Of a stretch of 64,000 bases of DNA, positions 19,089 to 59,324 are shown one piece after another (position 1 is the stretch's first letter; each line of letters begins with the position of its first letter). This DNA comes from Marine Group III euryarchaeote CG-Bathy1 (GTDB lineage Archaea; Thermoplasmatota; Poseidoniia; MGIII; CG-Epi1): positions 129,804 through 193,803 of the forward strand of contig MIYU01000001.1 of assembly GCA_001875425.1 (NCBI GenBank), given 5' to 3'. The notes below the pieces were generated by a model. It saw nothing but the letters and a program-made list of their open reading frames with translations. It did no database searches and was not told the DNA's origin. The position numbers and the translations under genes are program-made.

Positions 19089-19880
19089 GTGATTATTTTG
19101 AGTTATTATTACGAAAATAAAAGAGCAATCGTTCGAGGAATCCCCAATACTTTCAATTCCGCTATCTCAAAATATATGGGTTCTGGGCCTATTGATGTAG
19201 CTACTGCAAAGGTTCAACACATTTCCTACGTTGAAAAATTAAAATCACTCAAGGTTGAAGTTTTGAAACTAATGCCAGATGACAACTATCCAGATTGCTG
19301 TTTCGTAGAAGATCAAGTTGTAGTTCTCGATGATAGGGCATTAATCACTAACGCAGGTGCTCAATCTAGAAAGGGCGAAAAAGATGTAATAATCAACACA
19401 CTAAGTGAAAAATTAGCTTTAGAATTTATGGAATCTCCGGCAGAATTAGATGGTGGTGATGTTTTACGAGTAGGTGATATCGTATATGTCGGTAGCAGCA
19501 CACGTACAAATATTCATGGAATAAATGCTTTGAAAGATTTTGCAAATAAATCCAATATCACTGTAAAAACAATACCCATTCCTACTGATTCATTACATCT
19601 TAAAAGTATCTGTTCTTCACCTTGTCCCGATACTTTGATAGTTGCAAAAGATACACTATCCCTAGACCTTTTCGATTCCAGTCATAAATTGTTACAAATA
19701 CCAAAAGAGGACATATATGCTGCAAATACAATAGGAATAGGTCGGAATTTGATTATTCCTGATGAGTATCCAAATACACATAAAATCCTCGAAGACGAAG
19801 GTTTTATTCTTCATAAATTAAGCATGTCTCAAATTCGAAATGCCGACGGTTCTCTTACTTGCCTTTCAGTATTTTATTGA
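19089..19880 (+). CDS. dimethylarginine dimethylaminohydrolase-like amidinotransferase-fold enzyme
   Basis: DDAH-sized at 263 aa. 'DGGDVL' and the C-terminal 'DGSLTCLSV' (catalytic Cys context) fit. GTG start. Confidence 0.7.
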   Translation: MIILSYYYENKRAIVRGIPNTFNSAISKYMGSGPIDVATAKVQHISYVEKLKSLKVEVLKLMPDDNYPDCCFVEDQVVVLDDRALITNAGAQSRKGEKDVIINTLSEKLALEFMESPAELDGGDVLRVGDIVYVGSSTRTNIHGINALKDFANKSNITVKTIPIPTDSLHLKSICSSPCPDTLIVAKDTLSLDLFDSSHKLLQIPKEDIYAANTIGIGRNLIIPDEYPNTHKILEDEGFILHKLSMSQIRNADGSLTCLSVFY

Positions 19881-19920
19881 AAATCATTAATATAAACTGT
19901 ACTATCTGTGAGTTCAAATC

Positions 19921-21246
19921 ATGACAAATCCCGTAGAAATAAAACCAGCCTCTGGAAAGTTAGGAGTTCTACTTCCAGGTATTGGTGCTGTTAGTACTAC
20001 TTTTATTGCCGGTGTAGAGGCTGTTAAGGCAGGTATCGGTAAACCTATTGGGTCTCTGACTCAAATGGGCTCTTTGAGGTTGGGTAAGCGAAATGAACAG
20101 CGCGATTCAAAAATTAAGGATTTTGTCCCCTTATATGATTTAGAAAATTTAGTTTTTGGAGGTTGGGATATTTTTGCAGAATATCCTGATTGTTATTCGG
20201 CGGCTGTAAACGCAGGCGTTCTTGAACAATCTTTACTAGATCAATTAAAAGATCAACTTTCAGAAATCAAATCTATGCCAGCAGTTTTTAATCAAAAATA
20301 CGTTAAAAATCTAAATCCAACTAGAATAAAGGATGTTACAAGTCACAGAGATGCTATTGATGCTTTAAGATCTGATATTCGAAATTTCAAAGAAACTAAT
20401 AATCTAGAAAGGGCCGTTATGGTATGGTGTGGAAGTACAGAAACATTCCAGGCCCCCGATTCAGATATTTTCGAGAACCTTTCTAGTTTTGAAAAAGCAT
20501 TAGATAATGATGATCCATCAATTTTACCAAGCGTTCTGTACGCTTATGCTGCATTACAGGAAGACGTACCATATGCAAACGGCGCTCCAAACCTATCTGC
20601 AGATTTTCCAGCAATGTATGAACTTTCTCATAAATTAAAAGTTCCAATTGCAGGTAAAGATTTCAAAACAGGTCAGACATTAATGAAAACTATTCTCGCT
20701 CCCGGCTTCAAAGCTAGAATGCTAGGTATCGAGGGGTGGTTTTCTACAAACATTTTAGGCAATAGAGATGGGGAAGTTCTTGACGACCCCGAAAGTTTCA
20801 AAACTAAAGAAGTTTCAAAATTAGGAGTTCTTGAACAAATTCTAAAACCGGAGGAAAATCCAGATCTTTATGGGGATTTATATCACAAAGTTAGAATCAA
20901 TTACTATCCACCAAGAGGTGATGATAAGGAAGGTTGGGACAATATAGACATTAGAGGTTGGTTGAATTATCCTATGCAAATCAAAATAGATTTTCTCTGT
21001 AAAGATTCAATCTTAGCTGCACCTATTGTTTTAGATTTAGCACTCTTTATGGATTTAGCTAGTAGATCTGGCAAGTACGGTATCCAAGAATGGCTATCCT
21101 TTTATTTCAAATCACCAACATGTAAACCGGATCTCTATCCTCTGCATGATTTATTTGTTCAGAAAAATAAATTAGAAAACACACTCAGGGATTTAATGGG
21201 TGAGGATCTAATAACTAATCTCGGTTTAGATTATTACGATGAATAA
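19921..21246 (+). CDS. myo-inositol-1-phosphate synthase
   Basis: Contains 'GVLLPGIGAVSTT', 'YANGAPN' and 'NILGNRDG', and the length fits. Confidence 0.85.
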   Translation: MTNPVEIKPASGKLGVLLPGIGAVSTTFIAGVEAVKAGIGKPIGSLTQMGSLRLGKRNEQRDSKIKDFVPLYDLENLVFGGWDIFAEYPDCYSAAVNAGVLEQSLLDQLKDQLSEIKSMPAVFNQKYVKNLNPTRIKDVTSHRDAIDALRSDIRNFKETNNLERAVMVWCGSTETFQAPDSDIFENLSSFEKALDNDDPSILPSVLYAYAALQEDVPYANGAPNLSADFPAMYELSHKLKVPIAGKDFKTGQTLMKTILAPGFKARMLGIEGWFSTNILGNRDGEVLDDPESFKTKEVSKLGVLEQILKPEENPDLYGDLYHKVRINYYPPRGDDKEGWDNIDIRGWLNYPMQIKIDFLCKDSILAAPIVLDLALFMDLASRSGKYGIQEWLSFYFKSPTCKPDLYPLHDLFVQKNKLENTLRDLMGEDLITNLGLDYYDE

Positions 21247-21690: not shown

Positions 21691-23994
21691 ATGAGTAAAC
21701 GCAATGATTTCGTTGGTTTCGTAGGTTATCGCAAGCAGAGAGAACCTTCATTCGTTCAACCAGCTCCATTTACATCTTCTTGGAATCCTCTATTCAGCGT
21801 TTTGATTGTTTTTTGCGTTATTTTTTCAGGAGCTGCAATGTTATTCAGCCCCTTCGATGATGATATGGATAATACATATCAGGTAGAATTTCTGAAGACT
21901 ATGGTTTCAGAAAAGTCTAGAGATTCACCTGCATTAATCGGTTATGAATCTTGTATCGATTTGGAAGATAGATTGAAAACCAATGTTAAAGATGAAATGG
22001 TCACTACAGTAGGTTTAGGATATGGGGGGTATGGTATTTCTCCAGAATTCGGCATGGTCGATGTGGCAATGGATGATGGTGCAGCTTTGGAAAGCGCTGA
22101 TAGTTCTAATAGTGCATCTACTGGTTCATCTTCAAATCAGGAATTTTCTGGTACAAACAACCAAGAACAAGGGGTCGATGAAGGTGATTTCGTAAAAACT
22201 GACGGTGATTTCATTTATGTTTTGAATGATTGGGATTATCAAGTTTACAAGAATTGGGGCTGGTCGTATGAATCAAAGAGTATTCTACATATCTTAGCAG
22301 TACCCGAATTCGGCCAAATTGAAAATACATCTTCTACAGTAATCGAAGGAAATGCAAGAGAAATGCTCCTAGCGGGTGATAGAATGATAGTCTATTCAGA
22401 TATTTACACATGGGATATGCAAGAAGATCATATGCTTTCAGATTACGTCCGTTCCGACGGTAATTATCGTGTCTATGAAATGACTAAAATGACAATTTTG
22501 GATATCTCTAATCGTTCCTCTCCACAAGTAGATCAAGAGGTTTATATCGAAGGAAATTATCAGACTGCTAGGGAAGTAGATGGTACTGTTAGGATGGTAT
22601 CTTATGCATATTTAGACATTCCTGATGTTTTAAATTACATAAATTACGATTATGAAGTTTTCTGGGCAGATACTATGACTGATAGTGCTAGAGAAGATAT
22701 GTGGCGTGACGCTGCAACCTCTACTATAGAGCATAATAATGACGTAATAGATGAGACCTCACTTTCAGATTTAGTTCCTGCAATTTATTTTATGAATGAA
22801 GGTAATTTAGAGGAATTCAACTTCGCAACAGATGGTGGTTCTGGTTGTGACAATTTTGTCATATCTAGTGATGGAACTGGTGATGGTTTCACTTCAATCT
22901 TGACTATTGACTTAACCAAAGACAATTTTAGTTTTGAAGCAGACCATATGATGACCAACTATCCAACTATTTATTCTTCTTCTGACACTATGGTTATTTC
23001 AGAAAATACCAATGATTGGTGGTGGTATATGTTGGATGAAACCGATTATACCGAAGCTACCAATATTCACACTTTCGATGTAAGTGAAATGGGTGATACA
23101 AAATATATTGCCAGTGGAAGGGTGGATGGTACCGTTTCTGGTCAATTCTCTCTTTCTGAATATAATGATGATATACGCGTAGTTTCTACAATTGGAGAGT
23201 GGAATCGATGGTGGTTGGATAATCCAGAAGAATCAGAAACAATAGTTTGTGTTTTGCGTCAAGTTGAAGGTAGTCATGACTTATCTGAAGTAGGTAGAGT
23301 AGATGGTATTGCATTAGGAGAACGGCTATGGTCTGCTCGTTTCGTTGAAGAAAAAGCATACCTAGTCACTTTTAGAAATATAGATCCTCTTTGGGTTATA
23401 GATTTAAGCAATCCTACTATGCCAACAATAGAAGGTGAATTAGAAGTTCCAGGAGTTTCTACATACATACATCCTTTGGATGGCGATCGGTTACTAACTA
23501 TAGGTTACGGCGGAGATGGAGAAGGTCTCGATTGGAGTACTCAGATTTCTTTATTCGATGTTAGCGATCCTAATAATCCAACGTTATCTACTTCTTTGTC
23601 TCTCATGCCTGCAGATGAGAATGGTGGTTGGAGTTGGGGGTGGAGTGAAGCGAATTATGAGCACAAAGCTTTCCAATATTGGAATGGCACTCTAGCCATA
23701 CCAATGAGTACATACAAATATGATTGCGATGAAGATGGTTGGCGTTGTACTTATGAGTACGTAACTAAATTGGTGTTAATTGATGTTACAGATTATAATT
23801 TAGAATTAGATGGAGAGATTCATCATTCAGATTTTTACAATGAAGATAATACTTATTGGAACAATATTGATGTTCGCAGATCAATTTTCATGGGCGATTT
23901 TGTTTATTCAATAAGTAAAGGTGTAGTTCTAGTTCATGATCTATTGGACTTTGAAATGAAAGATTCTGTAAACTTGGGTATCACTTCAAAGTAA
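21691..23994 (+). CDS. membrane-anchored/secreted beta-propeller domain protein (Beta_propel family-like)
   Basis: N-terminal TM segment 'LFSVLIVFCVIFSGAAMLF'. 'GVDEGDFVKTDGDFIYVL' and the later 'ARFVEEKAYLVTFRNIDPLWVIDLSNP' match my recollection of the secreted beta-propeller family. Confidence 0.7.
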   Translation: MSKRNDFVGFVGYRKQREPSFVQPAPFTSSWNPLFSVLIVFCVIFSGAAMLFSPFDDDMDNTYQVEFLKTMVSEKSRDSPALIGYESCIDLEDRLKTNVKDEMVTTVGLGYGGYGISPEFGMVDVAMDDGAALESADSSNSASTGSSSNQEFSGTNNQEQGVDEGDFVKTDGDFIYVLNDWDYQVYKNWGWSYESKSILHILAVPEFGQIENTSSTVIEGNAREMLLAGDRMIVYSDIYTWDMQEDHMLSDYVRSDGNYRVYEMTKMTILDISNRSSPQVDQEVYIEGNYQTAREVDGTVRMVSYAYLDIPDVLNYINYDYEVFWADTMTDSAREDMWRDAATSTIEHNNDVIDETSLSDLVPAIYFMNEGNLEEFNFATDGGSGCDNFVISSDGTGDGFTSILTIDLTKDNFSFEADHMMTNYPTIYSSSDTMVISENTNDWWWYMLDETDYTEATNIHTFDVSEMGDTKYIASGRVDGTVSGQFSLSEYNDDIRVVSTIGEWNRWWLDNPEESETIVCVLRQVEGSHDLSEVGRVDGIALGERLWSARFVEEKAYLVTFRNIDPLWVIDLSNPTMPTIEGELEVPGVSTYIHPLDGDRLLTIGYGGDGEGLDWSTQISLFDVSDPNNPTLSTSLSLMPADENGGWSWGWSEANYEHKAFQYWNGTLAIPMSTYKYDCDEDGWRCTYEYVTKLVLIDVTDYNLELDGEIHHSDFYNEDNTYWNNIDVRRSIFMGDFVYSISKGVVLVHDLLDFEMKDSVNLGITSK

Positions 23995-24031: not shown

Positions 24032-27000
24032 ATGAATCGTAGCGTTTTGCCACTTTTAGTGTGTGCAATACTCATTTCCACTCCATTATTCATGCCTCTT
24101 TCAGAGTCATCTAACAGTGACAAAGATGTCCAAGGTTGGTGGTCTAATTATTCCAGAGATAAAGATAGAGATGGAATCAGCGATGTGTTAGAATGGAAAT
24201 TACAACAAGGTAATCGTTTCTTTGAGCCAGATTCAGCACGTGTTTTCATAAGATACGATCATCATCCCACAGATTCAGATATTGAAAAATTAGAAAAATT
24301 AGGAATAGAAGTAACTTATCGTGCTCAATATATCGACTTAGTTGCTACTACAATGCCTCGTAATCTAGTCTATCCAGTCTCTACTTGGTACGGCATTGTA
24401 ATGCTCGATGACATCGGTAAAGCAGTTCCACACATGAATGAAGCCGTTCCTGCAATGGGGGTAGATCAAGTTTGGAACAATTACGGTATTTATGGAAACG
24501 GAATCTCTATCGCTATAGTCGATACCGGGGTTGATAATGCCCATGTCGGTTTAGATGATATGGATGATAACATTCAAACTATGGATGATCTAAAAGTTGT
24601 AGCTTATTATGATGCAGTTCAAGATAATTTAGTATGTTCACCATGCTTACCTGGTGAATCTTTGGATAGTGGTACACACGGTACCCATGTTGCAGGTATA
24701 GCAGCAGGTACTGGTGATGGAGAGGCAGCACCAGACGGTTCACGCCATATTGGTGTCGCACCGAAAGCTAGCTTAGTCAACGTTCTTTCATGTTGCGATG
24801 GTGATATTGAAGACATTATCAGAGGTGTTGAATGGACGATAACTAATCAAAAACTAGTCGAACCAAATATCAGAGTTATGACATCCAGTCTCGGCGAACA
24901 ACAAATCGAATTTCATATCGATAACGATGGAAGCTCTGCTTGGAGTCAAGTTGTCGATGCCGCAGTAGAATCTGGCCTCGTAGTTACTTTGAGTGCAGGT
25001 AATGAATTTGGCTCAGCTACTGCAGCCGGTTGTAACACTATCGATTCACCCGGTGATTCAAGATTACCCATAACAGTCGCTTCTCTCGACAAAGATTTGA
25101 GTTTGGCAATATATAGCTCCAGAGGGTATACTTCGGATGGAAGAGTCAAGCCAGATGTCGCCGCTATAGGAAGCAGTATCATGGCCCCTAACAAGGGAAC
25201 TGGAACAGGTTACACTAGTAAAAGCGGAACTAGTATGGCCACTCCTTTGATGGCAGGTATTGTAGCTTTAACTTTAGAGGCTAATCCCGATTTAACCCCA
25301 ACAGAAGTTAAGGATACGTTAGTTGCAGGCTATTCTATCGAACGAGAAATATTAGATGATGATATAGATGCAGCATCTAATAATTGCTCAATTGCAGAAA
25401 CTAGACCGGACAACGAGTATGGTTATGGGCAGGCTGATCCAAAAACGTTCGTAGATATCTCTGGAAATATTGATTCTTCTTTGAGTATAAATTGGTCGTT
25501 AGAACCTGAATATATGTTAGTGAATGATTCTTACGTAGAGGTCAAACCAAGAATATATAACGAAAGTTGGATTAGAGGGGTCTCTGATTCTTCTGGTCAA
25601 TCAATTAGCATTGGTGTCGAGGTTCGTTTTGGCGTTGATAGTTGGTCTTTAGCAGATGATTTATCAGATAATGGTGATTGGAGTGAGTGGCAAATCAAAG
25701 TTCCTGAACAGACCAAAAAAGGCAATCAAACATTATACGCAAGATTAGTGGCCAATTCTGAACAAATGTCTCCCATGGCATCAGCATCTGTAGTTCTTCT
25801 CGATGAATACGATACTGATGATATCGGTTCTATTTCTTCACTTTCAGATTCAACAATTCTTCTATTGACGGCATTATTACTTGTTTTAACTGCCGGTGTG
25901 GGCATCCCTGTATGGAAGCGATATCGAAAATTAGTTAACAGTAGCACAGAAAATCAAAAACAGAATGTAAATCATCTCTTATTGTTTAGATCTTTAACGG
26001 ATGCTGCTCAGATTGCATTACTATACTGGACGGCTATGCGTTTCTTTTTACGAGATGAAGGGGCAAGCCAATCATTAGTTTCTGCCTATTATGGGATTGC
26101 GCTATTGGTTTTGGGCGTCAGTTTAATTTTTTGGGGGTACATAGCCGATACATATGGTTCTAGAAGAAAAATTCTTCTTTATACTTCAATCGGCTGCGCT
26201 ATTCTCTATCTCTTTATTCCATTTTTAGGCATATACGGTACAGTTTTCATTTCTATATTTCTATTGATGCTCCACGGTTCCGGTCGTATACCTAGGGCGA
26301 TTGCTTCTGAGTATTATCCTGATTGCCAAGGCGAATTCAATGGAGTTTTCTGGGGTATGTTCGCTTTGATATATTCTGTAGCATATCTTGCTGCTCCATC
26401 GATATACGAGTCTTTTGGTATGAATGCAATAGTCTTCTTCTGTTTATTATTGAATATTGCAGCAGCGTTCTGCGCATTCCGTTTAAACGAAATTGATGTT
26501 ATGCCTGGAACATTAGTTACTGATTCATCAACTCCTCTCGATTTTAATTCAAATTCATTCTCTTTAGATTCTCTACGTTTCAAGAATTCCTGGGTTAAAT
26601 GGATTTTACTAACCGTTTTCTTAATCTATATTCCTCGCGGAGTCATCGTTTACAATGCTCCGAATTATTTTGATGATATAGGTTATGACAGAAGTTTTGT
26701 TGGTGTAATAATGGGTTATTCGGTTGTAGCTTCTGTTATTCTTTATCCTTGGCTCGGTTCTGTTTGTGATCGTTTAGGAGCTTGGCAAGTACTTCTTTGG
26801 TCTGCTTTATTGTATATTCTCCTATGGGGTACTTTCAGTTCTGCCGTATCTACGCATCTGTCTGCATTTATTTTTATAATTCCTGTAATTCCATTTTTAC
26901 GTACTTCTAGAGATACGTTATTGTCTCAACTAACTGACTTGGATGAACGGAGTAAAGGTATGGGTTGGGGGGTTTTCATCGGTACACTTGGATATTCAGT

Positions 27001-27169
27001 TGGCGCTTTTTTCGCATCCGCAATGTTAGGTTGGTTAGATGCCAAAGATATGGAAATCCAAATGCAATATCTTTACACGTTCAGAGCTAGTTTAGTATTT
27101 CTTTTGTTAGCCTCTGCAGTTGCGTGGTGGTTGAATAAAAATACATCCAAGGAGGCTACCACTTGGTAG
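24032..27169 (+). CDS. fusion protein: secreted subtilisin-like (S8) serine protease, then a TM anchor, then an MFS transporter
   Basis: Signal peptide, then the S8 triad: 'AIVDTGVD' (D164), 'HGTHVAG' (H217), 'SGTSMATP' (S401). A TM helix spans aa 608-627 and is followed by 'KRYRK'. Next comes a multi-TM domain with MFS motif A 'GYIADTYGSRRK'. One uninterrupted 1045-codon ORF. Confidence 0.85.
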   Translation: MNRSVLPLLVCAILISTPLFMPLSESSNSDKDVQGWWSNYSRDKDRDGISDVLEWKLQQGNRFFEPDSARVFIRYDHHPTDSDIEKLEKLGIEVTYRAQYIDLVATTMPRNLVYPVSTWYGIVMLDDIGKAVPHMNEAVPAMGVDQVWNNYGIYGNGISIAIVDTGVDNAHVGLDDMDDNIQTMDDLKVVAYYDAVQDNLVCSPCLPGESLDSGTHGTHVAGIAAGTGDGEAAPDGSRHIGVAPKASLVNVLSCCDGDIEDIIRGVEWTITNQKLVEPNIRVMTSSLGEQQIEFHIDNDGSSAWSQVVDAAVESGLVVTLSAGNEFGSATAAGCNTIDSPGDSRLPITVASLDKDLSLAIYSSRGYTSDGRVKPDVAAIGSSIMAPNKGTGTGYTSKSGTSMATPLMAGIVALTLEANPDLTPTEVKDTLVAGYSIEREILDDDIDAASNNCSIAETRPDNEYGYGQADPKTFVDISGNIDSSLSINWSLEPEYMLVNDSYVEVKPRIYNESWIRGVSDSSGQSISIGVEVRFGVDSWSLADDLSDNGDWSEWQIKVPEQTKKGNQTLYARLVANSEQMSPMASASVVLLDEYDTDDIGSISSLSDSTILLLTALLLVLTAGVGIPVWKRYRKLVNSSTENQKQNVNHLLLFRSLTDAAQIALLYWTAMRFFLRDEGASQSLVSAYYGIALLVLGVSLIFWGYIADTYGSRRKILLYTSIGCAILYLFIPFLGIYGTVFISIFLLMLHGSGRIPRAIASEYYPDCQGEFNGVFWGMFALIYSVAYLAAPSIYESFGMNAIVFFCLLLNIAAAFCAFRLNEIDVMPGTLVTDSSTPLDFNSNSFSLDSLRFKNSWVKWILLTVFLIYIPRGVIVYNAPNYFDDIGYDRSFVGVIMGYSVVASVILYPWLGSVCDRLGAWQVLLWSALLYILLWGTFSSAVSTHLSAFIFIIPVIPFLRTSRDTLLSQLTDLDERSKGMGWGVFIGTLGYSVGAFFASAMLGWLDAKDMEIQMQYLYTFRASLVFLLLASAVAWWLNKNTSKEATTW

Positions 27170-27837
27170 CTGTCGCTATCACTCTATCTGAAGATAAATA
27201 TTTTGAAAAATACGCATCTTGGCTTCGAGAAATAGATGTCGAACCAGTGCGGATTACAGATTCCGAAGCTCTTTGCGATTTTGATATTTTAGTTCTTTCA
27301 GGAGGTGGCGATTTAAGTGTCGAAATTGGAGCTTACGGTCAACCAGAAAGAACAGATTTTCCTCTTCAATTCATAAAACCTGAACGGGATGAGTTGGAAA
27401 TTTCCCTTCTGAATAAAGCAACAAAAAATAAGATGCCAGTTTTAGGTATCTGTAGAGGGTTGCAAATAATCAATGTTTACTGTGGAGGTACACTCTGGCC
27501 AGATATCAGTGAAGGCAATTTCAATACTTTATTGCATAGGAAACATTCTGGAGATGATGGAGATACAGAACACGAAGTGGATTTAGTAGATTCAAATTTC
27601 GATGTAGCTAGTCACCACCATTTAGCTATTCATATTTTAGGTGACAATCTTTCAGCAATCGGTCACAGTAATGATGGTCTGATTGAAGCAGTTAAACATA
27701 CAGAACTTCCATGGTTTGCTGTTCAATGGCATCCTGAAAGAACTTTAGAGGGTCCCGGCCGTTCAATACCAAAAGAATGGCTTTTACAACAGATTAGAAA
27801 TATCTCAAATTCTAAAGATTCGGATAGCGTCGCTTAA
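27163..27837 (+). CDS. class I glutamine amidotransferase-like peptidase C26 (gamma-glutamyl hydrolase/PuuD-like)
   Basis: 'PVLGICRGLQIINV' carries the nucleophile Cys and 'VQWHPE' the His-Glu pair. The TTG start overlaps the upstream stop by 7 nt. Confidence 0.8.
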   Translation: MVAVAITLSEDKYFEKYASWLREIDVEPVRITDSEALCDFDILVLSGGGDLSVEIGAYGQPERTDFPLQFIKPERDELEISLLNKATKNKMPVLGICRGLQIINVYCGGTLWPDISEGNFNTLLHRKHSGDDGDTEHEVDLVDSNFDVASHHHLAIHILGDNLSAIGHSNDGLIEAVKHTELPWFAVQWHPERTLEGPGRSIPKEWLLQQIRNISNSKDSDSVA

Positions 27838-40158: not shown

Positions 40159-43100
40159 TTACGAACAACCAGTTGTTGCACCACAACCCAAACATTTGAA
40201 GCAACTACCATTAGGAACTAGTTTGAATTGTCCACATTCTGGGCAAGGATCTCCCGAGTATCCCATCTTAATTGCTTCACTCGCACTTTCATTCCCACCT
40301 CGAACATCCGTTGAAACAATATTAACATTCTCTAAGTCTGTTGTATCATATATTGTATCACTTGTTCCAACATCATCTAAGGTCATCTGTATCTCATGAT
40401 TGTCTGTGGTTTCAGATCTAGGTGTTAATTTATTTCGACTTGCTTGTTCATTTTTCTCTTCGGATTCGGTCCGCAAAGCATCATGCATTAAATCTTCCGG
40501 CGTAACTTGATGGCCCAATTCTGTTCGTCCTAAGTAATTTATGGCTAAATCTCTGAATAAATAATCTATAACACTGGTGGTCATTTTTATTCTTTCATTT
40601 CCAACAATCGGTCCATTAGGTTCAAATCTAGTAAATACAAATGCATCTACAAATTCTTCTAGAGGTACTCCATGCTGAAGCCCAAGACTAATCGCTATAG
40701 CAAAACTATTCATTAACGATCTGAAAGCTGCTCCTTCTTTATGCATGTTAATGAATATCTCACCTAGCGTTCCATCTTCATATTCTCCAGTGTGTAAGAA
40801 TATGGTATGGCCTGCTATCTTAGCTTTTTGAATATAGCCTCCTCTCTTGTTGGGCATTCTTCTTCTCTGTGCTATATATCTGGTTATGATTTTCTTAGCA
40901 GCTAATTTTGCATTTGCCATAGGAAGTGCTTCAGATAGCATTTCTGCCGCAGCTCCAGCCGTCATCATTCCTTCAGGAATCATCATCTCTTCATCTTCTT
41001 CCATTTCTATCGCAGATGCGATTTCAAGTAATGCTCCAGACATCAAAGGCTGACTCAGTTTACTTGCGTCTCTGTATACTGCCATGGCCTTGTTCATTAA
41101 TTTCCATGATAATTCATAAACTTCTTCTATATCTTCTACAAGAACTTCATGCGGCATGTTTATTGTTTTTGATATTGCTCCACTTATGAATGGTTGAGCT
41201 GCTGCCATCATTCGAACATGAGCCTTATAATCTATAGATCTCTTTCCATATTTTCCGCATTTATTGGCACAATCAAATACTGCAAGATGCTCCTCTTTGA
41301 TATGGGGTGCATTTTCTATTGTAAGTTTACCAAAAATATGATTCTCCGCTTCTTCTATCTGTTGCTCTGAAAAACCCATATGTTTCAGTAATACAAACAT
41401 GGGATCATTCATCTGTTCATCCGTAAGTTTCAAATTATTTTTACAGAATTCGTCACCTATATTGAGAGGTGTAAACAACATTTTCATCGAAGTTAAACTA
41501 GCAACGCGCCCTTCTAGTTCAGATAATACTTTTTCTGTAAATCCATAATTCATTAATGTTTCATTATTGATGTGCGGTGCTCCATCAAATTTTCCAGTTC
41601 CTATTATGTATTCTACAATCTCATCTCTTTCAGAGTCAGAGTATCCAAGTTTTTTCAATGCCAAAGGGACTGATTGATTTATTATTTTTAGAGACCCGCC
41701 ACCTGCTAATGTTTTAAATTTAATTAAAGCAAAATCAGGTTCTATTCCGGTAGTGTCACAATCCATCACAATGCCTATTGTGCCTGTAGGTGCAATCACA
41801 GTTGCTTGAGCATTTCTATATCCATGTTCTTCTCCCATTTCTAATGCAGAGTCCCAAGCTTTTTTGGCTGCTTTTACTAAATATTCTGGACAACTGTCTG
41901 GATTTATTCCCTGAGGCGTTATAGTCAATTCTTCATATTTTTCTGGTTTTTTATTATATGCAGCTCTGCGATGATTTCTAATTACTTTTAACATTTCATT
42001 CTTATTATAATCATATCTTTCAAACGGACCTATAACTCCTGCTATCTCGGCACTCGTTGCATAACTTATACCTCCCAATATTGCAGTAAGGGATCCACAT
42101 ATCGCATAAGCTCGAGGATCATCATATGGTATTCCCATTCTCATTAAGAGAGATCCAATATTCGCATATCCCAACCCTAGTGTTCGATATTCATAGCTAA
42201 GGCGCGCTATTGCTTCACTCGGGAATTGAGCCATTAATACGGATATTTCTAGAACTACAGTCCATATTCTTACAGCGTGCTCATAAGCTTCTACATCGAA
42301 CGTTTCTGTTTTTTCATCATAAAAACTTCCTAGATTCAAACTTGCTAAATTACATGCAGTATCATCTAAGAACATATATTCAGAACATGGATTACTGCCT
42401 CTTATTTTTCCATCCTTCGGGCAAGTATGCCATTCATTTATTGTTGAATGATATTGTATTCCTGGATCTGCACACGACCATGCTGCCTGAGATATTTTTC
42501 TCCACAAGTCATTGGCTGGCATGCTTTTACAAGGTTCAGCCACCCGCCCCTCTTTCTCTGCCTTTACCAGTTCAGTTCTCCAATAAAGATTCCACACTCC
42601 ATCTTTGGCAACAGCTTCCATGAATTCATTTGTTACTCTTACTGAATTATTACTATTCTGTCCAGAAACAGTTTGGTAAGCTTCCCCTTCCCATTCAGTT
42701 CCATATGTTTCGAATTCTATAGATGTCCATCCCTGTTCACCCAATTCTAAAACTCTTCCTATCAAACTATTCGGTATATGGGCTTTCATTGCCTTTTTCA
42801 AAGCTTTAGCTAGTTCTGGATTTTCTTTCTGATCCATTCTTTTTTCAGCATCTGGATATGCTTGTATTGCTGCTAACAATTCATTACAATGTTCTTGTAT
42901 GTGTAACGAACCAGAAACTAATCCTGCTACCTTTTCTTCTTCTTTAACTTTCCATTCTATGAATTCTTCTATATCTGGATGGTCCATATCTAAACTAACC
43001 ATTTTTGCTGCACGTCTAGTCGTTCCACCAGATTTGATAGCTCCTGCAGCAGTATCTCCTATTTTTAGAAATGACATTAATCCAGAACTTGTTCCACCAC

Positions 43101-43860
43101 CTGATAGGGCTTCACCTCCACCTCTTATATGTGAAAAATTACTACCTGTTCCAGAACCATATTTGAATAGTCTTGCTTCTCTTGTCCATAAATCCATTAT
43201 CCCACCTTCTTTGACTAAATCATCACTTACAGATTGAATGAAACAAGCATGAGGCTGTGGTCTTTCATATGCATTTTTAGAATTTTCAACTTGACCAGTT
43301 TCTTGATCAACATACAGATGCCCCTGTGCCGGCCCTTCTATTCCATAGGCCCAGTTAAGTCCAGTGTTGAACCATTGTGGTGAATTAGGTGATGCCATTT
43401 GCGCGGCCAACATATAGCATAATTCATCATAGAAAGCCCTCGCATCTTTTTCCGTTTTAAAGTAATCATTTTTCCATCCCCAGTATGTCCACGTTCCAGC
43501 TAATCTTCTAAACAATTCTTTTCCATCAGTTTCTTCCACATATCTTTTTTCTTTTTTAATTTTAGAAAGTGCTTTTTCATCAGGCACACTCTTTGAAAGC
43601 CAAAGGGGCACTCCGCGCTCTTTCGACTTTTTTAGTTTCGCTGCGATTCCCGCCTTTCTAAAATATTTCTGCGATAACACGTTAGCTGCAACACCGCTAA
43701 AATTTTCGGGCAAGTTTACATTTTTCATTTCGAAAGCGCTGCTTCCATCAATATTCAAAATCTCTATATTTCTCTTTTTCCATTTCAATTTTCCAAATGC
43801 TTCTTCCCCCTCATTTGTAAATTTTCTACCTACCTTCAAACCTTCAGAATTCGGCGGCAC
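40159..43860 (-). CDS. nrdJ: adenosylcobalamin-dependent (class II) ribonucleotide reductase, long form with a C-terminal zinc ribbon
   Basis: Contains 'ACFIQSV', '[13 protein letters not shown]', '[21 protein letters not shown]' and 'APTGTIG'. The C-terminal 'CPECG...CFKCLGCG' is a zinc ribbon. GTG start with GGAGGAG 5 nt upstream. Confidence 0.95.
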
Positions 43861-53072: not shown

Positions 53073-56000
53073 ATGATGAATTTCAGACCAAATAATACCA
53101 TGTTAGCCAGCTGGCTCGTTATGCTAGCTGCCGTGGGAGCACTATTCTTAGTCGGGTCAGCCGATGCCGGTTACACGGTATCCGTTACACCGGCAGAACA
53201 GAATGGTGTCCCAGAAGAGACACTGTCCTTCACAATAACTATAGATAATACCGATCCGGATGACGACGATACGTTTCTCGTCAACGTAAGTTTTGTCGGT
53301 TCTGTCGAACAAGACTGTGACGGATGTTGGGATACTTGGGTGTCTCAATCTACACTCAGTATAGATGCAGACGAGTCTGGAAGTACTAACTTCTATGTCA
53401 AGATTGGAGATATAGCACATGCAGAAGCCGATAGCGATGAGAGAGTTCTAGTAGAAGTAACACCTACCGTTGATAATGAAGCCTATTCTCAAGATGTTCG
53501 TGTTATCGTTGACCCAGCTTACGGCTGTACTCTAGAATTACTAACGCAAGAGTCTCCAGATTTAGATCCCTTTGATACATATCAGTTCGATTTCAACATA
53601 ACCAATTCAGATGGAAATGCCGAAGATAATATCGCTCTTTCATACAGTGCAAGTAGCGAAGACGGCATGTCAATCGCATACCCACCTCAAGTTTCAGATA
53701 TTGGTATGGGTGAAACAGCAGGATTCTCAGTAACTATATCTATAGATGAGACGACCGCAGCTAAAGGAACTAGATACATAAGTGTCACAGCTACCTCTGC
53801 AGACGGTTCAACAAACGTATCCACTACTTTCCAGTTTACCGTCAATATCTATAGGGATATTCAACTTTCTGAAGTAGATACAGGTTCAAAGGATATTATT
53901 GAGGGTGGTTCAGTCTATTATGGCGTAACTGTTACTAATGTAGGTAATTCTGCAGATACCTTCGTTCTAAGTATCGACGAGTCTTCAATTCCAGCCGACT
54001 GGGATGCTCAGTTGGGTTCATTGACAGATACAGGTAGTTTGGCACCAGGTGCAAGTTACACTTTCAGTGAAGCTATCTTTGTTTATGCACCAGATGATGC
54101 AGTTGCAGATGATATTGCTTTAATAGATATCGTCGTGACATCTGATGCAGATACTAATACTTCTAAATCGTTCCAAACTCGTTCTACAGTAGCTCAGAAT
54201 TATAAGCCTACTATACAAACGACTTCACAAACCAGTAGCGGCGCTCCAGGGACTGTAGTTTCATACACATTTACAGTTACTAACGCAGGTAATGGTAATG
54301 ATGAATTCAGTATTGAAATCACAGAACCAAATGCTGATGAATGTGCTCAGAACAATGCAGCATGCTGGGGTGTCGATCTAACTCCAGATGATGTAACGCC
54401 ACAAATGGCTCCTGATGGCTCCTTCGCGTTCACACTCAATATAACTATCAATGAAAATGCCTTGAAGCAATCATATACGGTTGTAATTAATGCAACATCT
54501 TCAGGCGCAGGATCCGATGGGTCATACACAACTAAAAACGTCTATGTGGAAGTTTCCGCTAGAGCAGATATTAGTTTAGATTCATCTGGAACTTCAAATA
54601 TAGAAGTAGATGCAGGTCAAACTGCAGAATATAATCTAACTATCACTAATGATGGAAATGATGAAGACGATATTTCTTTATCAGCAACTTGTGAGGCATG
54701 TGCTGATGGAGATTGGACTTTCCAATTCGTTGGCGGTTCAACTGTAACTATCGCTGCAGAATCTAGTACTACAGTGGTTTTCAGAGTAGATTCTCCTGAT
54801 GATGCAATTGCAAATCCTTACACCACAGTAATTACCGCAACTTCATCTATCGATGAGACTGAGACTGCTACAACAGAAGTTATCACCGAGATAAAGGAAA
54901 AATTCGAAGTTGATTTAGATTCAACAGAATCACAGAAACCAGGTACACCTTCAGACACTGTTGAGTTCTCATTAACTGTAACTAATGATGGTTCAGGCGT
55001 TGATGAGATTGAACTAACTTATGAGTTCGATGAGGCATCTTCTGGAGAGTTCTTAGAGTTCCCATCTTTCAGTAATAACACAGTTTCTTTGAATCCCGGC
55101 GAGAGTGCATCAGTAACCTTTTCATTACAAGTTTCTGAAGATGCTGATGATGTTTCTCACGGTATCACTGTAACAGCGACTTCTAAGAATGCAGAATCTG
55201 AAGAAGGTATTTCCGTTACAGATATGGTAAGTCTAACTGTAGTTGTTCAACCAGTATATGATGTTAGATTAACTTCAGATACTACAGTTGTAACAGCCAA
55301 TCCAAGCGAAAGTATCGATTTCGAAATGACGCTTGAAAATCAAGGTACAGATGAAGATACAATTACAATTACTGCAGAATATCCTTCTGCAATATATTCA
55401 GTATCTATATCACCAAACGCTCCAACAGTTTCTGAGGGTTCAAACGTAACTATCTCAGTCACAATAACTGTCGATGAAGATGCGTTGAAGGATATCTATA
55501 ATATCACTTTCACTGCTACTTCAGAAAATGACGGAACAGTTGATGCTACACACATGCTAGATGTAGATGTAGCTCAGCGATATGAAATTGAAATTCTCTT
55601 TTCAGATGGTTCATACGAAGCTGCACCTTCAGAAGAAGCAGTTTCAAATGTAACATTGACTAACAAAGGTACTGGTGATGACAGAGTTCAATTATCAATC
55701 GATAATGATGACTGTATAACTCGATATTCAGCAGAAAATTGTGTTGGAGATTGGGGTTCATTAGCACAAACATTAGTCCCAGCTGCAGACGGGTCGTTTG
55801 CTGCTGAAGAGACTGCAGAAGTAGCATTGACTGTTACTATTCCATCTTCCGCAGAACCTTCTGTTACTGCAGGTGTGTATTATGTTACAGTAGCTGTTCA
55901 ATCGTTGGACAATGAAACGGCAATGGATTTTGTAGACATACAGATAGTAGTCAAAACAATCTCTGTAGATCTTACTGGAGTTAGTACTACAGCTGATATT

Positions 56001-59000
56001 GAACCGGGTAGAACAGGCCAATTCACTGTCGATGTAACAAATGATGGTCAGGTTTCCGATACAATAACTGTTACTATTTCAGAAAGTAGTGGTTTCGGTT
56101 GGGCCTCTTTTGACGAAGACGGTAGTACAGAAATACAAATTTTATTGGCTGCAGGCGCTATCTCAACTGTAACTATCAATTTGGATCTTCCAAATTATGA
56201 TAATGTTACCGGTAGTGAGAAACAGAAATTAGCGGCAGACTATAATTACAATTTCAAGGTCGAGGCAAAGACTTCAGTCGGTTCAGTTGAATCATCTAAT
56301 TCCGTAACTATGACTGCAACTATCGAACAGATATATGGAGTCACAGTTGAATTAATTAATTCAGCCGTAACTAATGCAAGTACATTCCCATCAGCTGAAA
56401 TCGAGACAACTATTTTCGATGTACTGATAACTAATCTGGGTAATGGACAAGATAATTTCAAGGTCGAGACTTCACAACCAACAGGATTGACAGTCAACGT
56501 ATTCAACGTTAAGAGTTCATCCAGTTGTAGTGATGAATGGTCTCAGGCACAAGATACAATAAACGCTGCAGATGATGCTAGAGTTTATCTCTGTTTAACA
56601 CCACAAGAATCTGATTTAGATATTGGTAATTATCCAATCTCAATGTCCGTCAAGGCTAGAAATGGTGGAGACTCACCAGAATCTATAGATGTTGAGTTAG
56701 AGGTCAAAGAACCAACTAGAGATTTCTCACTAACTGTTGAAACAGCAGTGAAAGAAGTAGCTCCTGAATTCAGTTCAAGTGGAACGCCAAGCTCTACGAA
56801 GAACGTCGTCAAATTCAGAATAATCGTTCAAAACGATGGTTCACACGATGACAGATTCGTACCAGATATGGTGGAAGGTTACAATACAGCAACAAATGCA
56901 GACATAGGTGGTAATGGTGTCGACTGGTCATGGGACTTTTACGAGAGCCAAACTGAAACTAGCAGTAATAAGTGGGGAGGCTCACAAAGTTATGAGCTAA
57001 TTGATAGTGGTGCACAGAAAGAACTCTGGTTCATCATACATGTAGATTCCGAAGACGTTCAGTCTGGAACTTACAATATGACTCTCAAAGTCGAGATAGA
57101 AGATCAGGAAGGAGACATCAAACTATCTAAGACTACTACCGTTTCAATAATTGTTAATGAACCAACTCCAGGTATGTCCTTGACTATTTACGAGAACGTC
57201 AAAGATATCCAACCGGAGTACGAAGGGACATCTAGTGACAATGAAATACAATTCAAGATTAAGATAGAGAATACAGGTTCTCATACAGATTCTTTCATCT
57301 ATGTAGATGATCCAGACGCGGTTGAAGATGGCTGGGATATTGAATTCCAGACAAGTACAGGTTCTACATGGGATGATAATAACGGTGAAGATATTCAATC
57401 AACAGAATCTAAAGATATGTATGTCGTAATCACTGTTGACGATGAGGCAGAAGTCGGTAACTACACTATCAGAATTGACATTCAAAATTCAGAGGGTGAC
57501 AGTGAAGCTTCTGATACAGCAGTTCTTTACGTAATGGTCTTGAGGCCAGATTTAGCTTTAACACCTGCAGATATTACATTGTTAGTTAACAATGCAGAGG
57601 CAAACGCTTCACTTATCAGAGAGGACGATTCTCTAGCTATTTCTATAGCTGTTAAGAATTCAGAAAGCTCTGATGAATTTGCAACTAAGGCGGATGATGT
57701 TTTAGTAGAAGTTTACGTCTATCCTAGAACAAGCCCAGAACCAGGCTCAACACTAGCTACTGAATTAGAATTCACTTATGGTTTCACACAAGATAACGAT
57801 TACGGTTTCATCAAGATGATTTACAGCAGAGAGAATCGAATCGATGTCGGTGGTAGAGATATAGGAACTAGTGATTGGTCTGTAATCGGTGGAGAATGGT
57901 ATATCGAAGTCCGAGTGGATTACGATTCTTCTGATGACAACGGTAAGATTCTAGAAACTAACGAGAATAACAACAAAGCTCGTTACGCAGAACTACTACA
58001 AATCAAGGCCGATTTATCAATATCTGAAGTTTATGTAGATAGTAAGTATGTCGGTAATGGTTCCAGTGTTCCAAACTTAGGTGATACGGTAACGTTCACT
58101 GCAACAGTTGCTAATACTGGAGCAGCAGACATTCAGGATGCAAAACTCTTCATTACTGGCGATACAACTACTTCTAATGAAATCTTGAAGACCACTAGCA
58201 GTCAAAGTTATGTCGAATTCGATGTCGACGCTGGTGGAACTAAACAGGTCACATTCCGTTGGAAGGCCGGCTCTGTAGCTAGTACCTCTAAACTAGTTTC
58301 AGAATCTTGGAATGGTATCAGAATATCTGTAAATCCAAGATGTAGTGATTTCAATCTATTCGGCTGTGATACTGATTTAGATAGGGAGTTCGACGAGCTT
58401 AACCGTTATCAGAACAACGAGTATCCATCTTCAGGTCAGTTCACTCAGAATGGTTATGAGCTAGCATTCAACATGCTTCCAGATTTCACAATAGCTAAAG
58501 TCAAAATGAATCCATCATCACCAACTGTGGGTGAAACTGTTGCAATTACAGTTACTATCGAAAACGTCGGTAACACTGATTGGGAATACGGTTCAGGATC
58601 ATTATACTTAGTATTCGATGACAGTATTGGCGATGAAGTAACTACACAAATCGGTTCCTCTATTGATAAGGGTGGAGATTTCGATGTAGAATTCGATTGG
58701 ATATTCCCAGAAGCTGAAAACAAGAACGAAATCAAACTTTCATTTGAGCTTGATGCAGGTTCAGGAAGTAATAAGATTGAACAACTATCAAGCGACAATG
58801 ATGATGAAGAAGTAACACTAGAGGTCGTACTTCCTGCTGTTTTAGGTGATGTACCTGGTGTTGAGTTCTTGACTAAGAGAGAATTAATTCCAGGCGTACC
58901 TATGTACATACCTGTCGTACTCTTCCTGGGTGTTTTCGTTGTTGGTTTACCAGTACTCTTCAAACTGCGCAGTCTTACTGCTGCAGCAGCCAAAGCAGAG

Positions 59001-59324
59001 GCAAAGGCCGGAGGAAAATCAGATGATGACGGTGATAAACCAGCATCCGCAGCACCAGTAGCAGCTGCAACAGAAGCAGCAGCACCAGCAGCACCAAGCA
59101 AGGTAGGTTTGTCTATCAAATCTCCAGATGGCAAGACTGCAAATGTCAAAGTCCCTTCAATCATGCCAGTTCAGAGATTATTGCAAAATTGTGTGAATAA
59201 CAAATTCATACCTGATGCAAACTTCAATGTAATGCTTGATGGAAAGCCAGTTGATCCAAACACTACTTTGGGTGATGCAGGTTTCAAAGACGGCTCAGAA
59301 GTACAACTAGCACCTAAAAAATAG
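53073..59324 (+). CDS. giant (2083 aa) multi-repeat cell-surface protein with a C-terminal TM anchor and a cytoplasmic ubiquitin-like tail domain
   Basis: Signal peptide 'LASWLVMLAAVGALFLVGSADA'. At least 12 Ig-like/CARDB-NEW3-type modules each carry a 'T(V/I)TN.G...D.(F/I)' motif. TM helix at aa 1944-1963 (58902-58961), then an Ala/Lys/Asp-rich linker. The last 73 or so aa align position by position with ubiquitin. Confidence 0.8.
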   Translation: MMNFRPNNTMLASWLVMLAAVGALFLVGSADAGYTVSVTPAEQNGVPEETLSFTITIDNTDPDDDDTFLVNVSFVGSVEQDCDGCWDTWVSQSTLSIDADESGSTNFYVKIGDIAHAEADSDERVLVEVTPTVDNEAYSQDVRVIVDPAYGCTLELLTQESPDLDPFDTYQFDFNITNSDGNAEDNIALSYSASSEDGMSIAYPPQVSDIGMGETAGFSVTISIDETTAAKGTRYISVTATSADGSTNVSTTFQFTVNIYRDIQLSEVDTGSKDIIEGGSVYYGVTVTNVGNSADTFVLSIDESSIPADWDAQLGSLTDTGSLAPGASYTFSEAIFVYAPDDAVADDIALIDIVVTSDADTNTSKSFQTRSTVAQNYKPTIQTTSQTSSGAPGTVVSYTFTVTNAGNGNDEFSIEITEPNADECAQNNAACWGVDLTPDDVTPQMAPDGSFAFTLNITINENALKQSYTVVINATSSGAGSDGSYTTKNVYVEVSARADISLDSSGTSNIEVDAGQTAEYNLTITNDGNDEDDISLSATCEACADGDWTFQFVGGSTVTIAAESSTTVVFRVDSPDDAIANPYTTVITATSSIDETETATTEVITEIKEKFEVDLDSTESQKPGTPSDTVEFSLTVTNDGSGVDEIELTYEFDEASSGEFLEFPSFSNNTVSLNPGESASVTFSLQVSEDADDVSHGITVTATSKNAESEEGISVTDMVSLTVVVQPVYDVRLTSDTTVVTANPSESIDFEMTLENQGTDEDTITITAEYPSAIYSVSISPNAPTVSEGSNVTISVTITVDEDALKDIYNITFTATSENDGTVDATHMLDVDVAQRYEIEILFSDGSYEAAPSEEAVSNVTLTNKGTGDDRVQLSIDNDDCITRYSAENCVGDWGSLAQTLVPAADGSFAAEETAEVALTVTIPSSAEPSVTAGVYYVTVAVQSLDNETAMDFVDIQIVVKTISVDLTGVSTTADIEPGRTGQFTVDVTNDGQVSDTITVTISESSGFGWASFDEDGSTEIQILLAAGAISTVTINLDLPNYDNVTGSEKQKLAADYNYNFKVEAKTSVGSVESSNSVTMTATIEQIYGVTVELINSAVTNASTFPSAEIETTIFDVLITNLGNGQDNFKVETSQPTGLTVNVFNVKSSSSCSDEWSQAQDTINAADDARVYLCLTPQESDLDIGNYPISMSVKARNGGDSPESIDVELEVKEPTRDFSLTVETAVKEVAPEFSSSGTPSSTKNVVKFRIIVQNDGSHDDRFVPDMVEGYNTATNADIGGNGVDWSWDFYESQTETSSNKWGGSQSYELIDSGAQKELWFIIHVDSEDVQSGTYNMTLKVEIEDQEGDIKLSKTTTVSIIVNEPTPGMSLTIYENVKDIQPEYEGTSSDNEIQFKIKIENTGSHTDSFIYVDDPDAVEDGWDIEFQTSTGSTWDDNNGEDIQSTESKDMYVVITVDDEAEVGNYTIRIDIQNSEGDSEASDTAVLYVMVLRPDLALTPADITLLVNNAEANASLIREDDSLAISIAVKNSESSDEFATKADDVLVEVYVYPRTSPEPGSTLATELEFTYGFTQDNDYGFIKMIYSRENRIDVGGRDIGTSDWSVIGGEWYIEVRVDYDSSDDNGKILETNENNNKARYAELLQIKADLSISEVYVDSKYVGNGSSVPNLGDTVTFTATVANTGAADIQDAKLFITGDTTTSNEILKTTSSQSYVEFDVDAGGTKQVTFRWKAGSVASTSKLVSESWNGIRISVNPRCSDFNLFGCDTDLDREFDELNRYQNNEYPSSGQFTQNGYELAFNMLPDFTIAKVKMNPSSPTVGETVAITVTIENVGNTDWEYGSGSLYLVFDDSIGDEVTTQIGSSIDKGGDFDVEFDWIFPEAENKNEIKLSFELDAGSGSNKIEQLSSDNDDEEVTLEVVLPAVLGDVPGVEFLTKRELIPGVPMYIPVVLFLGVFVVGLPVLFKLRSLTAAAAKAEAKAGGKSDDDGDKPASAAPVAAATEAAAPAAPSKVGLSIKSPDGKTANVKVPSIMPVQRLLQNCVNNKFIPDANFNVMLDGKPVDPNTTLGDAGFKDGSEVQLAPKK

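Follow-up and report, generated by a model that had tools for sequence, protein, structure and literature searches.

A surface-bound enzyme that feeds an adjacent importer limits diffusive loss, as in lactococcal PrtP with the Opp permease and in the 'selfish' hydrolysis of Bacteroidota. Here we describe a gene from a 64,000-nucleotide (nt) stretch of DNA of Marine Group III euryarchaeote CG-Bathy1 (contig MIYU01000001.1, positions 129,804 to 193,803; hereafter the window) that encodes a subtilisin-type S8 protease and a complete major facilitator superfamily (MFS) carrier in a single open reading frame (ORF). PrtP–Opp and the 'selfish' systems differ from this fusion in that they consist of separate proteins and use ATP-binding cassette (ABC) or TonB-dependent importers.

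The protease half has well-described counterparts. Tk-SP of Thermococcus kodakarensis (PDB 3afg) has an N-terminal propeptide, an S8 domain and a C-terminal beta-domain, as in the window protein; in Tk-SP the C-terminal domain is a beta-jelly-roll. Unlike the window protein, Tk-SP is soluble and secreted, without a membrane anchor or a transporter. Mycosins, the S8 proteases of type VII secretion, associate non-covalently with an export machine. In mycosins, as in the stand-alone orthologues P0056 and P0059 of the window protease from Poseidoniia, a helix that follows immediately on the stalk tethers the S8 ectodomain; these proteins are anchored by a single helix or by a PGF-CTERM-like tail, and no transporter is covalently attached. 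A mycosin model was the top NCBIfam match of the window protease (3.6e-19), far below its cutoff.

In mammals, PepT1 and PepT2 recruit trypsin by their extracellular domain, and proteolytic activity gathers where an MFS-fold importer has its mouth (PMC4597091). That arrangement resembles the window fusion in the function proposed for it, and differs in being non-covalent, eukaryotic and based on the POT family, with the ectodomain between transmembrane helices (TM) 9 and 10 instead of at the N-terminus (PMC4597091). Extracellular S8 peptidases are universal in Marine Group II (MGII) genomes, and S08A is one of four dominant extracellular families, with transcripts among the most abundant in MGII/III (PMC6864105, PMC4660358). 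These peptidase studies do not mention an S8 fusion to a transporter (PMC6864105, PMC4660358), and our full-text literature searches found no description of an S8–MFS fusion. The original prediction for this DNA, made from the letters alone, had held that no characterised protease–MFS fusion was known. For the literature this statement appears to stand, but the architecture is already abundant in sequence databases, where JGI has given it a name. The fusion is apparently a variant of the membrane-tethered subtilases that is present in databases and undescribed in the literature.

Results

The fusion gene is one ORF of 1045 codons with an ATG start (24032..27169, forward strand, as are all parts of the gene given below), and no stop codon interrupts it, as originally predicted. 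Stop codons are frequent at the G+C content of this DNA (~38–40%), and chance does not account for a frame that stays open over such a length. The 90%-identity cluster of the protein holds at least seven full-length copies of 1045 amino acids (aa) from NCBI, JGI, ENA and Logan assemblies, on contigs of up to 211 kb. The ORF is also intact at two related loci, L007 (88% identity, from an unrelated assembly) and L008 (95% identity, from a GTDB representative metagenome-assembled genome, MAG), both of which keep the gene order of the window: ADI-like protein, inositol-1-phosphate synthase, beta-propeller protein, fusion, C26 hydrolase and PheT.

To measure constraint, we compared these window-type copies (window, L007 and L008) by the Nei–Gojobori ratio of nonsynonymous to synonymous substitution rates (dN/dS). 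The S8 domain gave values of 0.04–0.06, and both halves of the MFS gave the same range as the S8 domain, 0.03–0.06 (0.05–0.06 for the N-domain and 0.03–0.06 for the C-domain). The central MFS loop evolves fast (0.34–0.63), and the linker with the helix that follows it gave 0.05–0.4, with 0.2–0.4 against L007. The low dN/dS in each part indicates that the S8 and MFS halves are both translated and constrained. We conclude that the finding is real and biologically meaningful, namely a protease–transporter fusion in one polypeptide.

The protein begins with a Sec-type signal peptide (aa 1 to ~26; 24032..24109) with a hydrophobic core at aa 5–23 and a hydropathy peak of 2.26, and this N-terminal hydrophobic segment is conserved in all aligned homologues. 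It is followed by a propeptide-like region with a beta-alpha-beta pattern (aa ~27–140; 24110..24451), in which the sequence blocks WW..YSRD.D.DGISD and RVF.RYDH.P.D are conserved. This region precedes the match to mature Tk-SP (residue 121 of 3afg aligns to residue 137 of the query) and presumably acts as a propeptide.

The Peptidase S8 (subtilase) catalytic domain occupies aa 141–470 (24452..25441). A Pfam scan matched PF00082 (Peptidase_S8) at aa 155–466 with E=4e-47 and 161 bits, against a cutoff of 21.8, over the full profile (1–288). The catalytic residues stand in the order Asp-His-Ser within signature motifs, D164 in IVDTG (codon 24521-24523), H216 in SGTHGTH (24677-24679) and S401 in GTSMA (25232-25234), together with the oxyanion-hole residue N324 in SAGNE (25001-25003); all four are invariant across 14 aligned homologues. 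The triad had been given as D164/H217/S401. It is indeed intact, and D164 and S401 are correct, but residue 217 is a glycine and the histidine is H216. The closest solved catalytic domain is that of the archaeal subtilase Tk-SP (PDB 3afg/9ues, E~1e-33). The S8 domain is apparently an active exported subtilase.

The next ~130 aa form the predicted spacer (aa ~471–600; 25442..25831), which is all-beta in the secondary structure of the AlphaFold2 (AF2) model. It is conserved in every homologue, fused and stand-alone, and is the best-modelled part of the full-length model, with a predicted local distance difference test (pLDDT) score of 60–85. We read the spacer as a beta-sandwich stalk that holds the protease off the membrane. 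We found no second S8 or MFS paralogue within the 64-kb window.

A linker then leads to an extra helix, TM0, which is predicted to run from outside to inside (25832..25912; helix at aa 606–627, hydropathy 2.53, AF2 pLDDT 93–96). The motif WKRYRK follows it, in agreement with the single helix and KRYRK cluster of the original prediction. TM0 and the adjoining W-KRYRK-L fit the TM0 consensus of an MFS family described below, and not the anchor of the protease relatives; because they carry this TM0-MFS signature, the recombination junction between the protease and MFS lineages would lie at about aa 592–606. The positive cluster belongs to a short cytoplasmic connector (aa 628–648; 25913..25975) with five Lys and Arg residues against one Asp or Glu.

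The MFS domain consists of an N-domain with TM1–TM6 (aa 649–818; 25976..26485), matched by Pfam MFS_1 and MFS_1_like; a central cytoplasmic loop (aa 819–852; 26486..26587; AF2 pLDDT 50–57); and a C-domain with TM7–TM12 (aa 853–1034), matched by MFS_1, which together with the cytoplasmic tail and the stop codon occupies 26588..27169. The MFS_1 match reached 78.9–82.4 bits against a cutoff of 33.4 (E=4e-22); MFS_1_like also matched, at aa 670–940, and the strongest MFS_1 stretch lies at aa 858–1038. Motif A, GYIADTYGSRRK, was found as predicted, in the TM2–TM3 loop (aa 702–713; nt 26135-26170). Its residues serve the MFS conformational switch. Within motif A of the N-domain, G, W, G, D and R are family-invariant, as is the E of the 'SEYYP..GE' block. 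The C-domain has a second A-like motif, GSVCDRLGA, in the TM8–TM9 loop, as well as the conserved T..(D/E)ER..G loop.

Hydropathy analysis placed twelve helices after TM0, the last ending at aa 1034, and counted ~17 Lys and Arg residues in the predicted inside loops vs 3 outside, in accordance with the positive-inside rule. We modelled aa 604–1045 by AF2 with 48 sequences and obtained TM0 and a 12-helix bundle with a pLDDT of 91 and a predicted TM-score (pTM) of 0.90; the pLDDT of the MFS N-domain exceeded 90. Foldseek matched this model to solved MFS carriers with a probability of 1.0 and TM-scores of 0.6–0.7. Hydropathy, charge distribution and the AF2 model of the MFS all agree with the topology originally proposed, in which the protease lies outside. 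The MFS_1 score, twelve helices arranged as 6+6, the central loop, both termini inside and motif A together identify this half as a member of the MFS, and it is likely a functional transporter. The N-terminus of an MFS carrier must be cytoplasmic, and TM0 thereby solves the attachment of an ectodomain. We are highly confident of the overall architecture, an outward S8 protease joined to a complete MFS carrier. The full-length AF2 model, built from a 14-sequence alignment, had a pLDDT of 40 and was not used for the geometry of protease and transporter.

To place the MFS half, we searched 1.84 billion representative proteins exhaustively with phmmer, using the window MFS as the query; this search replaced a word-index search that had yielded nothing with the MFS half. 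When the alignment of the TM0-MFS family was used instead, the word index returned three proteins, and it seems to be saturated by hydrophobic sequence. The phmmer search found 56 relatives, 10 of them with E<=1e-10, the best being 30–34% identical; E-values within the TM0-MFS family were 6e-65 to 3e-23. Six of these ten (P0121, P0123, P0124, P0127, P0128 and P0132) consist of a signal peptide, an ectodomain of 200–450 aa, TM0 and the MFS, and two consist of TM0 and the MFS alone. Members with source names are labelled simply 'MFS transporter' and assigned to Thalassarchaeaceae, Poseidoniia or Marine Group III.

These Poseidoniia proteins (P0121–P0128 and P0132) have an MFS 21–34% identical to that of the window. 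They share with it the order of parts (signal peptide, ectodomain, TM0, then MFS), the W..RYR.L sequence at TM0, motif A, 'TEW.P..KGE' and 'ERNRG'. The family alignment has 21 invariant columns that are common to the window protein, and the G, D and R positions of motif A are invariant. We defined the subfamily by TM0, W..RYR.L, motif A, the E of 'TEW/SEY-P..GE', 'CDR.GA' and 'ER..G', all of which are present in the window MFS. The ectodomains differ: those of the relatives contain no protease, one being a PQQ/BamB-like beta-propeller and five being beta-rich, weakly interrelated and without a Pfam match. No homology was found between these other ectodomains and the spacer or propeptide region of the window protein. 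By these shared features, the window MFS is a member of a rare subfamily that is so far confined to Poseidoniia and has TM0 always and an ectodomain usually.

Neither the POT nor the AmpG/PAT family accommodated the window MFS. Membership in the POT peptide transporters was rejected by sequence and by fold. AmpG, BT1 and Acatn models did not match it, and AmpG/PAT membership (TC 2.A.1.25) was rejected, as there was no match of the TIGR00901, PF13000 or PF03092 type and BLASTP gave E=0.02–0.05 to the MFS of P0006 and P0084, the AmpG-like fusions described below. Its nearest neighbours in sequence and fold are generic or small-solute carriers (NorA, EmrD, SV2A, OxlT, SfMCT, YegT, sialin and G6PT).

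We next asked how widespread the fusion is. A search with the whole protein recovered more than 100 protein clusters of 1164–1297 aa with both S8 and MFS, whose JGI product name, where given, is 'subtilisin family serine protease/MFS family permease'; S8-only matches were named Poseidoniia or Thermoplasmatota. One genome per GTDB species was also scanned, giving 186 relatives, and the best 80 loci were classified. S8 and MFS share one ORF at 65 of these 80 protease-homologous loci; the loci that carry a name are assigned to Poseidoniia, Marine Group II or Marine Group III. Of the 65, 64 have an AmpG-like MFS and one (L008) has an MFS of the window type. A complete stand-alone protease with a single C-terminal TM anchor is present at 12 loci, and the remaining 3 are interrupted by a contig end. 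In most relatives, then, the two parts are fused. The original prediction had named separate, unlinked genes in all relatives as grounds for refutation, along with a split ORF and a cytoplasmic protease, and it withstands all three. S8–MFS fusions are common in Poseidoniia, and the window carries a rare module-swapped variant.

The common fusions, represented by P0006 (1176 aa) and P0084 (1270 aa), have a signal peptide, propeptide region, S8 domain and spacer that are orthologous to those of the window protein at 55–75% identity, and they use the same solution of one TM followed by the MFS in a single ORF. They differ in their AmpG/PAT-like MFS, in two extra helices in its central loop, and in their gene neighbourhoods. 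The MFS of the P0006 type matched the TIGR00901 AmpG model (6.9e-35, below the NCBIfam cutoff of 350 bits) and also RhtX/FptX, BT1 and Acatn. Pairwise comparison separated the two halves clearly. The window and P0006 proteases are 74.7% identical, and their MFS modules are not significantly similar (BLASTP E=0.02 over 87 aa); the corresponding values for P0084 are 54.6% and E=0.05. By contrast, P0006 and P0084 share 51% identity in the protease vs 35% over the full length of the MFS (E=1e-89). The stand-alone P0059, to which an MFS comparison does not apply, is 70% identical to the window protease. Vertical divergence of the window MFS from the AmpG-like module was rejected, because no MFS similarity remains at 75% protease identity, whereas the AmpG-like MFS stays 35% identical even at 51% protease identity. 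One protease is thus joined to two MFS modules that are unrelated by sequence.

A neighbour-joining tree built from the protease part puts AmpG-like fusions of 1164–1200 aa, largely from Marine Group III CG-Epi1 MAGs, as the sister group of the window clade; the stand-alone forms and the fusions of 1255–1297 aa branch further out. The simplest reading is that the AmpG-type fusion is old in Poseidoniia, and that the window lineage obtained its form in one of two ways, by replacement of the MFS or by the independent fusion of a stand-alone paralogue to a TM0-MFS.

Stand-alone proteases of 610 aa (L001–L003, L028, L030 and L038) end in '…SPGLPLL-hydrophobic-RRRD' at the position where the fusions have TM0. 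The tail, '…SPGLPLLVGL…ALRRRD', resembles a PGF-CTERM sorting tail; for one of these proteases the JGI name is MYXO-CTERM. A PGF-CTERM/archaeosortase motif is absent from the window protein, whose chain runs on into the MFS. Gene fission was rejected as the origin of these 610-aa proteases, which have no adjacent MFS gene. At four further loci from Thalassarchaeaceae-type MAGs (L078, L083, L084 and L085), the tblastn match extends over ~4 kb and the ORF with the catalytic serine has 667–711 aa, which suggests tandem stand-alone S8 paralogues. Separately, the protein at L033 (867 aa) ends after TM6 of the MFS, like the close relative P0003; these shortened forms come either from errors in sequencing or from a transporter half that has now and then become a pseudogene.

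The genes next to the fusion lie on the same strand. The upstream gene (21691..23994, +) encodes a membrane-anchored or secreted Beta_propel protein of 767 aa (PF09826, Pfam E=9e-110) and ends 37 nt before the fusion, in the same order as in L007 and L008; it may belong to the same operon. The downstream gene (27163..27837, +), which has a TTG start, encodes a predicted cytoplasmic Peptidase_C26 or class-I glutamine-amidotransferase-like hydrolase (PF07722, E=2e-33) with gamma-glutamyl hydrolases as its best NCBIfam similarities. Its start shares 7 nt with the end of the fusion gene in each of the three window-type loci, and it is probably co-transcribed and translationally coupled with the fusion. 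Beyond the beta-propeller gene, a short way upstream of the fusion, come genes for an ADI/DDAH-like protein and for inositol-1-phosphate synthase (19089-21246, +). The same two genes are found 4–6 kb from the stand-alone protease in the Poseidoniia MAG loci L001–L003, in inverted relative orientation, which points to an old shared neighbourhood.

Two other genes of the window have unusual features. The ORF at 53073-59324 (+) encodes 2083 aa with Ig-like, CARDB, NPCBM_assoc and FixG_C-type repeats, and at its C-terminus a Rad60-SLD ubiquitin-like domain (aa 2013–2079, Pfam E=8e-7), which is unusual for a giant surface-type protein. The ORF at 40159-43860 (-) encodes a class II (B12-dependent) ribonucleotide reductase of 1233 aa with a TSCPD domain, in which the barrel domain was matched in two stretches; its extra length might come from an insertion such as an intein.

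Discussion

We propose the following model for the fusion protein. The signal peptide would take the N-terminus out of the cell, and the propeptide-like region, the S8 domain and the beta-sandwich stalk would stay outside. TM0 would cross inward, and the MFS would begin and end in the cytoplasm, so that a subtilisin-type protease would be kept covalently on the outer face of the membrane by a 12-helix MFS. The tethered protease would cleave dissolved or particulate protein, and the adjoining carrier would import the product, or a solute released alongside, before it diffused away: 'digest at the surface, import next door'. The imported solute may then be processed further in the cytoplasm by the coupled C26-type hydrolase. 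In this model we infer that the protease is active and that the carrier transports, as well as which way it does so and what its substrate is.

One TM helix suffices in the stand-alone orthologues, so the 12-TM module is unlikely to be a mere anchor. Functional coupling is favoured over anchoring because two different MFS modules occur on one protease and both are constrained. Likewise, the 12-TM module has been retained and re-acquired, which speaks for a coupling between transport and the protease. Taking the model as a whole, functional coupling included, we lean slightly towards it. The particular step in which the MFS takes up the products of proteolysis is put forward tentatively, as one that may or may not hold: the original prediction of peptide uptake found no family-level support, since generic MFS models matched and POT/PTR2 did not. 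Peptide uptake is nevertheless a reasonable hypothesis for the mechanism. Broader and more speculative is the idea that S8–MFS fusions could be an overlooked class of covalent 'digest-and-import' machines that form a main capture route for proteolysis products in MGII/III, with a coupling so advantageous that it was assembled at least twice, on unrelated MFS modules, the window variant being the second.

Several observations weigh against functional coupling through peptide uptake. The window MFS gave no match to POT/PTR2 (PF00854) at E<=1, POT chains were absent from its PDB sequence and profile matches, and no POT structure was among its top 50 Foldseek matches; its nearest folds are carriers of monocarboxylates or small organic anions, oxalate, nucleosides and sugar phosphates, and SV2. 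Twelve complete orthologous proteases exist without an MFS and without an MFS neighbour, so coupling is not obligatory. Neighbourhoods differ among the three fusion clades, which lack a conserved pathway context. The close relative P0003 (842 aa), a single exception, is frameshifted after TM6 of its MFS. Finally, at a pLDDT of 40, the full-length AF2 model is too poor to give the geometry between the active site and the mouth of the transporter.

The alternative that fares best is that the MFS carries an unrelated substrate or is a sturdy anchor, and that the fusion is harmless or ensures 1:1 surface display. The stand-alone orthologues need just a C-terminal TM anchor, neither MFS type is a peptide carrier, and the two fused modules are unrelated, as would be expected if any polytopic protein could do. 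However, a 12-TM anchor would be costly, and motif A and the other family-invariant residues are kept at a dN/dS of 0.03–0.06. Moreover, neutral persistence would not predict that the fusion is retained in 65 of the 80 best loci and re-created with a second MFS. We therefore regard this explanation as unlikely, though deserving of attention.

It is improbable, in our view, that the fusion serves only co-synthesis and membrane targeting, as a polyprotein from which the subtilase is freed before TM0, by itself or by a sortase-like enzyme, and is then free or bound to the S-layer. Subtilases do autoprocess their propeptides, the linker and TM0 region evolves fast (dN/dS 0.2–0.4 against L007), and the stand-alone orthologues carry the PGF-CTERM-like 'PGLPLL...RRRD' tail at the homologous position. 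Yet there is no PGF-like motif ahead of TM0 in the window protein, and release would leave unexplained the recruitment of a particular MFS family with its own TM0.

S8 maturation proteases beside exporters, such as the leader peptidases LanP and NisP, are a known paradigm. By analogy, the MFS could export a precursor (a peptide, a siderophore-like compound or a surface component) that the tethered S8 domain matures outside. Weak matches to PatA/PatG-type and mycosin-type models, and the resemblance of the AmpG-like modules to RhtX/FptX siderophore carriers, are in line with such a role, but no conserved biosynthetic or precursor genes accompany any of the three fusion clades, and the family, almost universal and high in copy number, occurs in a heterotrophic group that is known to degrade protein; we consider export very improbable. 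Last, an artefact, in which a frameshift, mis-assembly or chimeric contig fused two separate genes, is effectively refuted by the at least seven copies of identical full length from independent assemblies, the intact ORF and synteny in the 88% and 95% relatives, codon-level purifying selection across the junction and both halves, and 64 more fused loci in other species, while the frameshift in P0003 lies inside the MFS, away from the junction.

Studies of carbon and nitrogen cycling in the ocean have long faced the question of how free-living marine microbes can profit from extracellular enzymes whose products diffuse away. Covalent attachment of a protease to a carrier would be the most direct answer known. 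Its hosts, Marine Group II/III, are globally abundant and uncultured, and in the surface ocean they count among the most abundant of the heterotrophic archaea. The module swap is a natural experiment, which argues for selection on the pairing of protease and transporter and not on a particular transporter. The fusion also gives a starting point for working out what two orphan MFS groups transport, and it illustrates a simple rule for placing an ectodomain on an MFS carrier: add one N-terminal helix, TM0.

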